From assembly GCF_056712565.1 (NCBI RefSeq), contig NZ_CM160072.1: a stretch of DNA of 64,000 bases; one strand, given 5' to 3'. The notes beneath the pieces are model-generated. The model was not told the origin of the DNA, searched no databases, and saw only the letters and a program-made list of their open reading frames with translations. The first letter of the stretch is position 1, and every line of letters starts with the position of its first letter. Both the position numbers and the translations under genes were made by a program. Shown piece by piece: positions 54,084 to 58,084 of this stretch.

Positions 54084-54147
54084 GATGGTGACCTCAGTTA
54101 AGAGAAGCCCGTTAAGTGTAGTTCGAAATTTATACAGATGAGAGGGA

Positions 54148-54230
<83 letters not shown>

Positions 54231-54242
54231 ATCACAATACAA

Positions 54243-54578
54243 TCAGTTCTTTTTCACAAACTCAGATTTCAGTTTCATCGGACCAAAACCGTCGATTTTG
54301 CAATCGATGTTATGGTCGCCTTCAACCAGGCGGATGTTTTTCACTTTGGTGCCAATTTTCAGCATCGAAGAGCTACCTTTCACCTTCAGATCTTTAATGA
54401 TGGTCACGCTGTCGCCGTCAGCCAGCAGATTGCCGTTAGCATCTTTAACGATCAGCTCGTCGCTTTCCTGTGCAGGTTCTGCGTCGTTCCATTCGTAGGC
54501 ACATTCCGGGCAGATGTACATGCCGTTATCTTCGTAGGTGTATTCGGAGTTGCATTTTGGGCAGTGTGGTAATGACAT
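54243..54578 (-). CDS. yjdM: Zinc-ribbon protein PhnA/YjdM
   Basis: 111 aa from [30 protein letters not shown] (two CxxC pairs). Confidence 0.85.
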
Positions 54579-54980
54579 GTGGATTTCCTCAAAAGTCAGC
54601 AGGGCAAAAGCGCCAAAAAACGGCAGATTGCCGAAAAAGGCCGCAATTATACACAAAATCCCTGAGTTTGTCGGGGGTACTGCTGATTTTAGACGACGAT
54701 CGTTTTCATTTGAAAGGAAACGCAAAAAGAAAATAATCTTTTTGCCTCCATTTATTATTTAAGATAAGGTTAATGCTCTACATGTTCTTTTTTTAATTCA
54801 AATGATATTTTTTATCTTTCTGACGTTTTAAACGTATCGGAAGACGTTATTTATTCTAATAAAAAACAACACTCTAAATATAAAATTATTTCTTGCAGTA
54901 ATTATAAAAGCCGAAAACAGAACTCAAAAACAATCTGGCTAAATAAAAGTAATAAAATTTGCTTTAAGGAAAAATTTTCT

Positions 54981-57209
54981 ATGTACACACAGACCCTGTA
55001 TGAGTTAAGTCAGGAGGCTGAACGCCTGTTACAGCTTTCTCGCCAACAGTTGCAGTTACTGGAAAAAATGCCTCTCTCTGTACCCGGAGACGATGCGCCA
55101 CAACTGGCTTTACCCTGGAGTCAGCCTAATATCGCCGAACGTCACGCGATGCTGAATAATGAGTTGCGTAAAATTTCCCGACTGGAAATGGTGCTGGCGA
55201 TTGCCGGTACTATGAAAGCAGGGAAATCAACCACCATTAATGCCATTGTTGGTACGGAGGTTCTGCCTAATCGCAATCGCCCAATGACTGCGCTGCCAAC
55301 GCTTATTCGCCATACGCCCGGGCAAAAAGAACCGGTACTGCATTTTTCACATGTCGCGCCAATCGACCATTTAATTCAACAATTACAACAGCGCCTGCGT
55401 GATTGCGATATTAAGCATCTGACCGATGTGCTGGAAATAGATAAAGATATGCGTGCGCTTATGCAGCGGATTGAAAATGGCATCGCTTTCGAAAAATATT
55501 ATCTGGGTGCTCAACCTATTTTTCATTGTCTGAAAAGTTTGAATGATTTGGTGCGACTGGCGAAGGCGCTGGACGTCGATTTTCCTTTTTCTGCTTACGC
55601 CGCCATTGAGCATATTCCCGTGATTGAAGTGGAGTTTGTCCATCTGGCGGGGCTGGAGAGTTATCCCGGTCAGTTGACGTTACTGGATACCCCCGGGCCA
55701 AATGAAGCCGGGCAACCGCATCTGCAAAAAATGCTTAACCAGCAGCTGGCACGCGCCTCGGCGGTACTGGCGGTGCTGGATTATACGCAACTGAAATCGA
55801 TCTCCGATGAAGAGGTCCGTGAGGCAATTTTGGCGGTGGGGCAATCGGTGCCGTTGTATGTGCTGGTCAATAAGTTCGATCAACAGGATCGTAACAGTGA
55901 CGACGCCGACCAGGTGCGGGCACTGATTTCCGGAACGCTGATGAAAGGCTGTATTACGCCACAGCAGATATTTCCGGTGTCGTCGATGTGGGGCTACCTG
56001 GCGAATCGGGCGCGCCATGAGTTAGCCAACAACGGTAAGTTACCACCGCCAGAGCAACAACGCTGGGTGGAAGATTTTGCCCATGCCGCGCTCGGCAGGC
56101 GCTGGCGTCATGCCGATCTGGCGGACCTCGAACATATTCGCCATGCTGCCGATCAGTTGTGGGAAGATTCGCTGTTCGCCCAGCCAATTCAGGCGTTGCT
56201 TCATGCCGCTTACGCTAACGCCTCGTTGTATGCTCTGCGATCTGCCGCGCATAAACTGTTGAATTACGCGCAGCAGGCGCGGGAATACCTGGATTTTCGT
56301 GCGCACGGGTTAAACGTCGCTTGTGAACAATTGCAGCAAAATATCCATCAGGTCGAAGAAAGTTTGCAGCTATTGCAACTCAATCAGGCGCAGGTGAGCG
56401 GCGAGATTAAACATGAAATCGAGTTGGCCCTGACCTCCACCAACCACTTTCTGCGTCAACAGCAAGATGCGGTGAATGCGCAGTTAGCCGCGTTGTTTCA
56501 GGATGATTCGGAGTCGTTAAGTGAGATGCGTACCCGCTGTGAGACACTGTTACAGACGGCGCAGAACACCATCAGTCGCGACTTTACGCTGCGCTTTGCC
56601 GAGCTTGAGTCCACCCTTTGCCGGGTGTTAACCGATGTTATTCGCCCCATTGAGCAACAAGTCAAAATGGAATTGAGTGAGTCTGGGTTTCGTCCTGGGT
56701 TTCATTTTCCTGTTTTTCACGGCGTAGTTCCCCACTTCAACACCCGCCAGCTGTTCAGCGATGCAATATCCCGTCAGGAAGCAACGGATGAGCAGATCAC
56801 CCGTTTTGGCGTTGTGCGTGAGATTTTTTCGCGCTGGTTGAATCAGCCCGACTGGGGACGGGGAAATGAGAAATTCCCGACAGAGACGGTTGATTACAGT
56901 GTGTTGCAACGAGCATTAAGCGCAGAAGTCGATCTTTATTGCCAACAAATGGCTAAAGTTATGGCAGAGCAGGTCGATGAATCTGTTACGGCAGGCATGA
57001 ATACTTTTTTCGCTGAGTTCGCTTCATGTTTGACGGAATTACAGACGCGTTTACGCGAAAGTCTGGCTCTGCGTCAACAAAATGAATCCGTGGTCAGGCT
57101 GATGCAACAGCAATTGCAGCAGACTGTGATGACTCACGGCTGGATTTACACCGACGCTCAGCTGTTACGCGATGATATTCAAACACTTTTCACGGCAGAA
57201 CGATATTGA
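54981..57209 (+). CDS. crfC: Dynamin-like GTPase, clamp-binding sister replication fork colocalization protein
   Basis: 742-aa ORF with P-loop GTMKAGKST and dynamin-like DTPG motif. Confidence 0.9.
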   Translation: MYTQTLYELSQEAERLLQLSRQQLQLLEKMPLSVPGDDAPQLALPWSQPNIAERHAMLNNELRKISRLEMVLAIAGTMKAGKSTTINAIVGTEVLPNRNRPMTALPTLIRHTPGQKEPVLHFSHVAPIDHLIQQLQQRLRDCDIKHLTDVLEIDKDMRALMQRIENGIAFEKYYLGAQPIFHCLKSLNDLVRLAKALDVDFPFSAYAAIEHIPVIEVEFVHLAGLESYPGQLTLLDTPGPNEAGQPHLQKMLNQQLARASAVLAVLDYTQLKSISDEEVREAILAVGQSVPLYVLVNKFDQQDRNSDDADQVRALISGTLMKGCITPQQIFPVSSMWGYLANRARHELANNGKLPPPEQQRWVEDFAHAALGRRWRHADLADLEHIRHAADQLWEDSLFAQPIQALLHAAYANASLYALRSAAHKLLNYAQQAREYLDFRAHGLNVACEQLQQNIHQVEESLQLLQLNQAQVSGEIKHEIELALTSTNHFLRQQQDAVNAQLAALFQDDSESLSEMRTRCETLLQTAQNTISRDFTLRFAELESTLCRVLTDVIRPIEQQVKMELSESGFRPGFHFPVFHGVVPHFNTRQLFSDAISRQEATDEQITRFGVVREIFSRWLNQPDWGRGNEKFPTETVDYSVLQRALSAEVDLYCQQMAKVMAEQVDESVTAGMNTFFAEFASCLTELQTRLRESLALRQQNESVVRLMQQQLQQTVMTHGWIYTDAQLLRDDIQTLFTAERY

Positions 57210-58084
57210 CCAAGACGTTACTGGACGGCCCCGGTCGCGTGCTGGAGTCGGTTCATCCGCGCTTTTTAGTGGATCTGGCGCAGGGCGATGATGCCCGCCT
57301 TCCACAAGCCCATCAGCAGCAGTTTCGTGAACGACTGATGCAGGAACTTCTTGCGCGCGTGCAGCTTCAGACATGGACGAACGGCGGCATGTTAAATGCG
57401 CCGCTTAGCCTGCGTCTGACATTGGTGGAAAAACTGGCGTCGATGCTGGATCCCGGTCATCTGGCGCTGACGCAGATCGCGCAGCATCTGGCGCTGCTGC
57501 AAAAAATGGATCACCGCCAGCACTCTGCTTTCCCGGAGCTCCCCCAGCAAATTGTCGACTTGTATGAGTGGTTTTCAGCCCGTTGTCGCTGGAAGGAAAA
57601 GGCGTTAACGCAACGAGGCCTATTGGTGCAGGCGGGTGAACAGAGCGAGCAAATTTTTACCCGCTGGCGTGCTGGGGCGTATAACGCCTGGTCGTTGCCT
57701 GGGCGCTGCTTTATCGTTCTGGAGGAGTTGCGCTGGGGTGCATTTGGCGATGCCTGCCGTCTGGGAAGACCGCAAGCGGTGGCGTTGTTGCTGGGTGATT
57801 TGCGCGTGAAAGCGACACAACATTTGGCAGAGAGTATCAATGCGGCCCCGACCACGCGTCACTATTACCATCAGTGGTTTGCCTCTTCGACCGTTTCGAC
57901 GGGCGGGGAGCATGCTGATTTTTTAAGTTGGCTGGGAAAGTGGTCCACGGCAGATAAACAACCCGTTTGCTGGTCAGTGACCCAACGCTGGCGAACTGTC
58001 GCACTGGGGATGCCACGACTCTGTTCAGCGCAGCGTCTGGCGGGAGCAATGGTCGAGGAAATCTTCTCTGTAAATTTGGTGTAA
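57206..58084 (+). CDS. yjcZ: Uncharacterised protein co-transcribed with crfC
   Basis: 292-aa ORF overlapping crfC stop by 4 nt. Confidence 0.85.
   Translation: MTKTLLDGPGRVLESVHPRFLVDLAQGDDARLPQAHQQQFRERLMQELLARVQLQTWTNGGMLNAPLSLRLTLVEKLASMLDPGHLALTQIAQHLALLQKMDHRQHSAFPELPQQIVDLYEWFSARCRWKEKALTQRGLLVQAGEQSEQIFTRWRAGAYNAWSLPGRCFIVLEELRWGAFGDACRLGRPQAVALLLGDLRVKATQHLAESINAAPTTRHYYHQWFASSTVSTGGEHADFLSWLGKWSTADKQPVCWSVTQRWRTVALGMPRLCSAQRLAGAMVEEIFSVNLV

Follow-up and report, generated by a model that had tools for sequence, protein, structure and literature searches.

What does the long, AT-rich spacer between yjdM and crfC do in Escherichia coli: does it control its two neighbours, or does it conceal a gene of its own? 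The original prediction had described the interval between these genes as about 400 bp long, gene-free and strongly AT-rich, and had offered both readings, that of a silenced promoter region bound by nucleoid proteins and that of a hiding place for a small RNA or a small ORF. Here, we address this question by combining base composition, comparison with relatives and motif scans with the published work on the orthologous region of K-12.

Materials and methods

The window is the whole 64-kb stretch of DNA that was analysed. Sigma70-type promoters were searched with a consensus scan and with a hexamer matrix of our own; sites scoring 6.5 or more were counted, and the expectation was taken from the window average. 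The comparative scan used one genome per species, and spacers of 346-528 bp entered a nine-sequence alignment. Statements on H-NS occupancy, on derepression in Δhns strains and on the effects of SlyA and FliA come from the literature on K-12, and our own contribution consists of composition, gene arrangement, sequence comparison, motif scans and the search for RNA genes and ORFs.

Results

Position and distribution of the spacer

The original coordinates are exact: positions 54579-54980 are precisely the 402-bp spacer between the divergently transcribed genes yjdM (minus strand) and crfC (plus strand) of E. coli (Table 1). The start codon of crfC is the ATG at 54981 on the plus strand, and rdcB/yjcZ (57206-58084) lies directly after crfC. 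Both flanking genes are annotated likewise in the record of ATCC 11775, to which, as to many B2-type strains, the 701 bp around the interval are 100% identical. The same 701 bp occur at a coverage of at least 80% in 5,404 of 5,426 complete E. coli genomes, and the AT-rich core is present in a single copy in about 5,410 of the 5,426, at 95-100% identity. Because this core is single-copy in nearly every genome, we rejected its origin from a mobile element or a repeat; repeats within the interval amount to short two-copy or AT-rich matches. In K-12, the orthologous spacer (4326735-4327134, 400 bp) differs by nine substitutions and two one-base indels, and the genes of the operon are named rdcA and rdcB in the current record.

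Table 1. Features in and around the yjdM/crfC spacer (positions in the 64-kb window)
Feature	Position	Strand	Basis or remark
yjdM (phnA), zinc-ribbon protein, left neighbour	54243-54578	-	annotation
Divergent intergenic region yjdM/crfC (rdcA/yjdA)	54579-54980		402 bp, 31% GC
yjdM-proximal block, highly conserved (promoter and predicted ~60-nt leader)	54579-54690	-	best-conserved part
Hairpin CGGCAATCTGCCG followed by T6, in predicted yjdM leader, terminator-like	54621-54633	-	not supported as a conserved structure
Best candidate yjdM promoter, CCGACA-17-TATAAT	54646-54674	-	-35 at 54674-54669, -10 at 54651-54646; predicted start ~54639
Perfect DnaA box TTATACACA (consensus TTATNCACA), overlapping predicted yjdM -10	54647-54655	+	motif scan; predicted site
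Candidate promoter TTCAAA-17-TAAAAT, back-to-back, towards yjdM	54686-54714	-	highest sigma70 score in the interval
AT-rich core, putative H-NS binding/silencing tract, crfC promoter(s) and 5'UTR	54701-54980		24% GC, 280 bp
Candidate distal crfC promoter, TTGAAA-16-AATAAT / TTGAAA-18-TAATCT	54710-54739	+	start ~54744-54746, leader ~236 nt
Central conserved block TTGCCTCCATTTATTATTTAAGATAAGGTTAA; candidate TTGCCT-17-TAAGGT promoter (start ~54777) or regulator site	54742-54775	+	alignment
Conserved block GCAGTAATTATAAAAGCCGAAAA with TATAAA (+), perfect TATAAT (-) and GCCGAAAA	54895-54917	+	alignment, motif scans
Conserved crfC-proximal leader TGGCTAAATAAAAGTAATAAAATTTGCTTTAAGGAAAAATTTTCT, Shine-Dalgarno AAGGA at 54966-54970	54936-54980	+	kept as far as Yokenella
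crfC (= yjdA = rdcA), dynamin-like GTPase, gene 1 of the crfC-rdcB operon	54981-57209	+	annotation
FliA (sigma28)-type motif TAAAGTTATGGCAGAGCAGGTCGATGA within crfC, ~230 bp upstream of rdcB	56954-56980	+	motif scan

Base composition

The interval has a GC content of 31.1% compared with 53.2% for the whole 64-kb window. Equally low values are reached by 0.14% of all 402-bp windows, and the lowest of them (30.3%) starts at 54606, within the interval. Together with 22 A/T runs of at least four nucleotides, most of which fall in 54701-54980, this bears out the description of the spacer as strongly AT-rich with many A/T tracts. The AT-richness is not uniform, as the roughly 120 bp next to yjdM (54579-54700) have an ordinary 47% GC. 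In the remaining 280 bp, every 50-bp window is 72-82% AT, and with 24% against 53% GC this part has the AT content of an H-NS-silenced promoter region. Other intergenic regions that we checked in the window lie at 35-52% GC, the next most AT-rich places being the promoter spacers rpiB-alsR and gltP-nrfG at about 35%, and crfC itself is ordinary (51%). The A-tracts are not helically phased, a periodicity of 10-11 bp being no stronger than in shuffled sequences.

Conservation across relatives

The order yjdN-yjdM-spacer-crfC is found in two cryptic Escherichia lineages, in Citrobacter amalonaticus (three loci), in C. koseri and in Yokenella regensburgei. In these relatives GC falls to 22-35% over the final 200-300 bp upstream of crfC, within loci of 49-55% GC. 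The yjdM-proximal block (54579-54690) does not differ from K-12 at any of its 112 positions; it is 1% diverged from the cryptic Escherichia clades, for which 4-fold sites give 12-34%, and 13-14% diverged from Citrobacter, for which they give 30-56%. At the other end, the crfC-proximal block (54871-54980), which contains GTAATTATAAAAGCCGAAAA as well as GGCTAAATAAAAGTAATAAAATTTGCnTTAAGGAA with the Shine-Dalgarno sequence, is 21-31% diverged from Citrobacter, compared with 50-56% at the 4-fold sites of crfC. The middle zone (54691-54870) is 44-50% diverged from Citrobacter, and C. amalonaticus has inserts of some 100 bp here; in its sequence the zone is essentially neutral, though still AT-rich. 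Within it lies a central island (54742-54775) that is about 78% identical to C. amalonaticus and has unalignable sequence on either side. Since the flanks diverge far less than 4-fold sites and the middle is about neutral and tolerates large indels, it is composition rather than sequence that is retained in the middle. Conservation no greater than neutral drift had been named beforehand as an outcome that would speak against a function of the interval; this is not what we observed, because the two flanking blocks are clearly constrained.

Could the AT-richness still have no function of its own and simply result from mutation towards AT in a long spacer under relaxed constraint? Such a view would fit the nearly neutral divergence and the large indels of the middle 180 bp, as well as the lack of phased curvature and of a strong H-NS consensus motif. 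We consider it very unlikely, however, as the low GC upstream of crfC (24-32%) is kept in three genera despite the turnover of sequence, the other spacers that we checked in the same window do not fall below 35% GC, and both H-NS binding and an effect of Δhns have been published for this region.

Search for a hidden gene

The statement that the interval holds no ORF with coding character proved right: it fully or largely encloses only four ORFs of 20-28 aa, which have neither an NCBIfam match nor an annotation, and the mini-ORFs that we checked are broken in frame or unalignable in relatives. An unannotated small protein or regulatory leader peptide would have to be sought among these four, or among Phe-rich mini-ORFs in T-runs (ATG TTC TTT TTT TAA at 54783; ATGATATTTTTTATC... 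at 54803). However, the 21-aa ORF upstream of yjdM begins upstream of the predicted start site, and its frame relative to yjdM differs between E. coli and Citrobacter; the 20-aa ORF is located within the unalignable middle; the mini-ORF at 54803 is frame-shifted in K-12 by a one-nucleotide difference in a T-run, and the ATG at 54783 is TTG there. Indels thus shift the frames both in K-12 and in Citrobacter, and the conservation of reading frame that a small protein or leader peptide would display is not found. Nothing is annotated in the sampled genomes either: the K-12 spacer (4326735-4327134) carries zero features, whereas nearby small proteins, PmrR among them, do have entries, and the entry for features under the AT-rich core was 'none' in every genome row inspected. 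A hidden peptide is therefore barely credible to us.

An independent sRNA gene could, for example, be encoded on the minus strand, as a transcript of about 170 nt from TTGAGT-15-TATAAT (start ~54894) to a hairpin at 54745-54722. Its -10 element would be a perfect TATAAT inside a conserved block, and the 9-bp hairpin is terminator-like. Yet this hairpin has only three G-C pairs and, like the middle region, is not conserved outside Escherichia, and the terminator-like sites of the interval (3 versus 1.5 ± 1.3 in shuffled sequences) are within chance and not conserved. An Rfam search of the interval in this strain gave no match even at E ≤ 10, and the orthologous spacer of K-12 gave none at the gathering threshold; the nearest match is a REP/naRNA4 element beyond yjdM. 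No significant folding was seen for the two predicted leaders, which are distinct from the hypothesised minus-strand RNA: the yjdM leader has a z-score of -0.93 against shuffles, and the putative 267-nt crfC leader one of +0.29. The hairpin of the yjdM leader shows no covariation (term -0.16), and in one Citrobacter the pairing of its stem is disrupted. Neither the curated K-12 record nor any other genome that we inspected lists an RNA gene at this place. Taken together, an sRNA gene appears highly improbable, and the suggestion of a hidden sRNA or small ORF gained no support from Rfam matches, folding, covariation or reading frames.

Two leader-based mechanisms were considered and discarded. 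An attenuator in the yjdM leader (hairpin with U6 and alternative hairpins) was rejected on the z-score of -0.93, the missing covariation and the broken stem, and a structured long leader of crfC on the z-score of +0.29.

Promoter-like sites

Promoter prediction, which had been proposed as a check of the spacer, returned 22 sigma70-like sites on the two strands of the whole 402-bp interval, about 7-fold more than the 3.3 expected. TANNNT occurs 23 times (7.2 expected) and the TpA step 32 times (16 expected). The interval thereby shows the excess of -10/-35 combinations that goes with promiscuity of RNA polymerase.

On the yjdM side, the most likely promoter is the predicted CCGACA-17-TATAAT, which would give a leader of about 60 nt. 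All nine aligned sequences share its candidate -10 (ATTATA), and eight of them its candidate -35 (TGTCGG), which in Yokenella is displaced by one nucleotide through an alignment gap. The TTCAAA-17-TAAAAT candidate (54686-54714) is specific to Escherichia, and the final T of its -10 is lost in Citrobacter. The DnaA box TTATACACA is the sole DnaA-box match at up to one mismatch in the interval; it is kept in Escherichia and Citrobacter and lost in Yokenella. We thus found the TTATNCACA consensus at a predicted promoter, as a candidate site identified by its motif. Consensus scans of the interval for IHF, Fis, CRP and Lrp yielded nothing, or matches with two to three mismatches.

For crfC, no single promoter site stands out, and a choice among the candidates can only be inferred. 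The TTGAAA candidate (54710-54739) is present in K-12 and in both cryptic clades and is not alignable in Citrobacter; four Citrobacter loci have the TTGCCT-17-TAAGGT pair (54742-54770) at the orthologous position. A third candidate is the TATAAA hexamer of the conserved 54895-54917 block. The published data that we searched gave no start site. In its main text, the SELEX paper on the RpoD holoenzyme lists yjdM once, for the yjdN-yjdM spacer, and does not name the yjdM-yjdA spacer. In the supplements on transcription start sites and 3' ends, Kim 2012 has no entries or coordinates for yjdA or yjdM and Adams 2021 contains nothing on the spacer, and a 2026 preprint on REP325 has no text on a yjdM promoter or start site.

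H-NS at the crfC promoter

Is the AT-rich half of the spacer bound and silenced by a nucleoid protein? For the K-12 orthologue, this part of the original prediction is right and documented in the literature, with both H-NS binding and a rise of crfC mRNA in Δhns. Taniguchi et al. 2019 (PMC6374313) define the 'crfC promoter region' as the 300 bp upstream of the ATG, attribute reports of H-NS binding and crfC repression to Oshima 2006 and Shimada 2011, and report that crfC mRNA at 30 °C was 'markedly increased' when hns was deleted; their Supplementary Figure 6 marks consensus sequences for H-NS, FliA and the DnaA box in this region. Published data also suggest an influence of DnaA on crfC mRNA at 42 °C. 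In Curran et al. 2017 (PMC5797941), crfC-yjcZ is 2.6-fold up on overproduction of SlyA and carries a flag as H-NS-associated in the data sets of Kahramanoglou 2011 and Oshima 2006. A supplementary table of the H-NS binding study of Higashi 2016 gives TRUE for yjdA-yjcZ in an operon-labelled column, a flag that may mark association with H-NS. The supplement of Forrest 2022 lists 0.77 and 1.31 for crfC, which, taken as the log2 change in Δhns and a significance score, would be a modest effect.

The high-affinity H-NS motif TCGATAAATT of Lang et al. 2007 has no match in the interval at up to two mismatches. The variant motif TCGATATATT has one match, with two mismatches. The high-affinity motif is not known to be obligatory for H-NS binding, and its absence thus weighs little. 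We further considered whether the locus is a horizontally acquired island and as such a target of xenogeneic silencing, against which speak the 51% GC of crfC and the order yjdN-yjdM-crfC kept in Citrobacter and Yokenella; with an ordinary GC content and conserved synteny, 'xenogeneic' silencing of foreign DNA is the wrong frame for this gene.

Dependence of crfC on FliA

Expression of crfC depends strongly on the flagellar sigma factor: deletion of fliA lowered yjdA 12.3-fold and overproduction of FliA raised it 5.3-fold (Zhao 2007), and its RNA-seq value of 111 in the wild type compares with 11 when fliA is deleted (Fitzgerald 2014, Table 2). The FliA ChIP-seq site of the latter study lies within yjdA and drives yjcZ, an upstream FliA promoter being described there as 'incorrectly predicted', and Shimada 2017 likewise places the peak of RpoF SELEX within yjdA. 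Our scan agrees with this assignment. The pattern TAAAGTTT-N11-GCCGATAA has its sole match in the window, at up to three mismatches, at 56954-56980, which corresponds to the intragenic ChIP-seq site and SELEX peak, and it has none in the interval at this threshold.

Does the conserved GTAATTATAAAAGCCGAAAA block then act as a non-canonical FliA promoter or as the site of an activator of the flagellar programme, with crfC as a late flagellar gene? The roughly 10-fold fall of yjdA without fliA is in line with this reading, the block is kept in Citrobacter, and GCCGAAAA in 54895-54917 is the same octamer that the table of Fitzgerald 2014 gives as the -10 of the FliA promoter of tsr. Against it stand the lack of a FliA ChIP-seq peak upstream of yjdA in that study, the position of the RpoF SELEX peak inside yjdA, the lack, in E. 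coli and Citrobacter alike, of a suitably spaced -35 TAAAGTTT, and our own estimate that a repeated 8-mer is expected about once by chance in 400 bp. On balance, we regard this reading as quite unlikely; it is compatible with silencing by H-NS and, if true, the GTAATTATAAAAGCCGAAAA element would explain the roughly 10-fold drop of crfC mRNA in ΔfliA despite the absence of FliA by ChIP.

A broader proposal takes both conserved blocks together, with a sigma28 or flagellar-activator site at GTAATTATAAAAGCCGAAAA and a DnaA box that would couple the divergent pair to the status of replication. As CrfC binds the replisome clamp, such a coupling is intriguing; we deem the proposal as a whole unlikely.

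Discussion

The interval is an ordinary divergent promoter region, of which the AT-rich half is the promoter of crfC. The feature is real but ordinary, and an H-NS-bound, repressed crfC promoter is already known from K-12. Added here are its place in the core genome, the persistence of synteny and AT-richness, the conserved blocks around a drifting middle, and the roughly 7-fold enrichment in sigma70-like sites.

Very probably, the spacer is a bipartite regulatory region, with a yjdM promoter half and an H-NS-silenced, AT-rich crfC half. The conserved 110 bp or so of normal GC content beside yjdM would hold the yjdM promoter and its leader of about 60 nt, with a -10 that overlaps the DnaA box. 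The 280-bp tract of 24% GC would carry the promoter or promoters, the leader and the ribosome-binding site of crfC(rdcA)-rdcB, and would at the same time serve as a landing pad for H-NS. We propose that H-NS polymerises over this tract, where -10-like hexamers crowd both strands, and that the filaments would occlude weak promoters of crfC as well as prevent spurious initiation in either direction, keeping crfC transcription low. Counter-silencers such as SlyA and the conditions of the flagellar/FliA programme raise crfC expression, and rdcB has a further sigma28 promoter within crfC. Which of the hexamers form real promoters, and that silencing works by occlusion, is inferred.

How does the region compare with known systems? 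The same locus in K-12, as the published crfC/yjdA promoter region, is the one for which derepression in Δhns and the response to SlyA are reported. As in the H-NS-repressed promoters of E. coli (bgl, proU, hlyE/clyA, cadBA, adiA), an AT-rich tract with dense promoter-like hexamers lies beside the regulated gene. In contrast to these, the regulated genes here are neither AT-rich nor obviously foreign, and a good match to the 10-bp high-affinity H-NS motif is missing. The crfC region is not known to have a downstream regulatory element. A further comparison is with promoter islands, of which the published list reportedly counts 78. The crfC tract resembles promoter islands and spurious promoters (Panyukov & Ozoline; Singh et al. 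2014; Forrest et al. 2022) in its roughly 7-fold excess of sigma70-like sites, found on either strand over about 300 bp, and in its association with H-NS, but it is short, intergenic and located ahead of a bona fide operon.

With the class 3 flagellar (FliA/sigma28) promoters, the locus shares a crfC mRNA that depends about 10-fold on fliA, a tsr-like GCCGAAAA octamer in the interval and a true sigma28 motif within crfC, ahead of rdcB; it differs from them in that the interval has neither a -35 element nor a ChIP or SELEX signal. Like the DnaA-box promoters of dnaA, nrdAB, mioC and guaB, it has a perfect TTATNCACA box, which here covers the predicted yjdM -10; unlike in those promoters, this is a single candidate box, 326 bp from the start of crfC and lost in Yokenella.

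Why would an AT-rich tract be kept where its sequence drifts? The localisation of CrfC is reported to be sensitive to its amount, overexpression delocalising the protein (PMC6374313). As overexpression delocalises CrfC, the selective reason for the tract may be that it holds CrfC/RdcA low, and reading the 280 AT-rich bp as an H-NS-controlled promoter would thus explain how the operon is kept low.

In summary, the finding matters little beyond annotation hygiene, and the interest that remains is small: it lies in the position of the crfC promoter, in the FliA dependence of crfC and in the candidate DnaA box on the yjdM promoter. What the region sets is the amount of CrfC/RdcA and, with it, of RdcB, and as cells switch from motility to biofilm these two proteins act as activators of DgcE, the master diguanylate cyclase.

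Candidate regulatory elements around crfC and rdcB

In K-12, two independent studies found crfC (yjdA) mRNA to be about 10-fold lower in a ΔfliA strain (Zhao 2007; Fitzgerald 2014). We found no FliA motif upstream of crfC when the spacer at 54579-54980 was scanned, and in the K-12 literature FliA ChIP and SELEX peaks are both absent upstream of yjdA. Within crfC itself lies a sigma28-type motif, which agrees with the published intragenic FliA promoter driving yjcZ/rdcB. The AT-rich middle of the spacer retains one conserved island, around which the sequence is otherwise unalignable with Citrobacter. The island may be the real crfC promoter or, alternatively, a regulator site, and we regard it as a candidate for either.

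Features located in the window
Feature	Position	Strand	Remark
alsC	~36958-37938		annotation; NZ_CP033092.2 4425595-4426575
REP unit, naRNA4 (RF02564)	54148-54225	-	Rfam match, 96 bits
Conserved island TTGCCTCCATTTATTATTTAAGATAAGGTTAA	54742-54775		~78% identity to Citrobacter
Sigma28-type motif TAAAGTTATGGCAGAGCAGGTCGATGA	56954-56980	+	inside crfC, ~230 bp 5' of rdcB start

Elsewhere in the window, the H-NS motif TCGATAAATT, allowing at most two mismatches, is densest around 39001-39400, where six matches per 402 bp were counted vs ~0.45 expected.

Integrity of crfC and other genes

A single disruption of this kind was inspected: in E. coli A65EC (L020, NZ_CP182331.1, 3051-3805), IS1 has taken the place of the AT-rich core together with the N-terminal portion of crfC, and the annotation lists this crfC as a partial pseudogene. 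In a locus of C. amalonaticus AUH_CA_2023_1 (L007, 4001-4165) the crfC frame ends after 165 nt, owing to a frameshift or else to a mistake in the assembly; crfC is complete, at 2,355 nt, in both of the remaining C. amalonaticus loci. Fragments of CrfC were also observed in two unrelated assemblies, namely on a short contig of a MAG named 'Leptolinea sp.' (L016; 99% identity to the E. coli protein) and on a 241-bp scaffold of Gleimia coleocanis (L018; 94% identity), and both are probably Escherichia contamination of those assemblies.

The identical ATCC 11775 record annotates alsC, the gene for the D-allose ABC transporter permease, as a pseudogene because of an internal stop. The same record, matching the window, gives phnE as intact (~50.8-51.6 kb; 4444-5282 in L001, a compared locus), and its K-12 counterpart is the phnE1 pseudogene.

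Copy number of naRNA4 between yjdN and yjdM

The yjdN-yjdM spacer (54084-54242) contains one naRNA4 REP unit. In K-12 this spacer measures 657 bp; the naRNA4 units there number six, lie in tandem at 100 bp spacing and are known as the REP325 cluster. Counting naRNA4 in both spacers therefore gives one copy here vs six in K-12.
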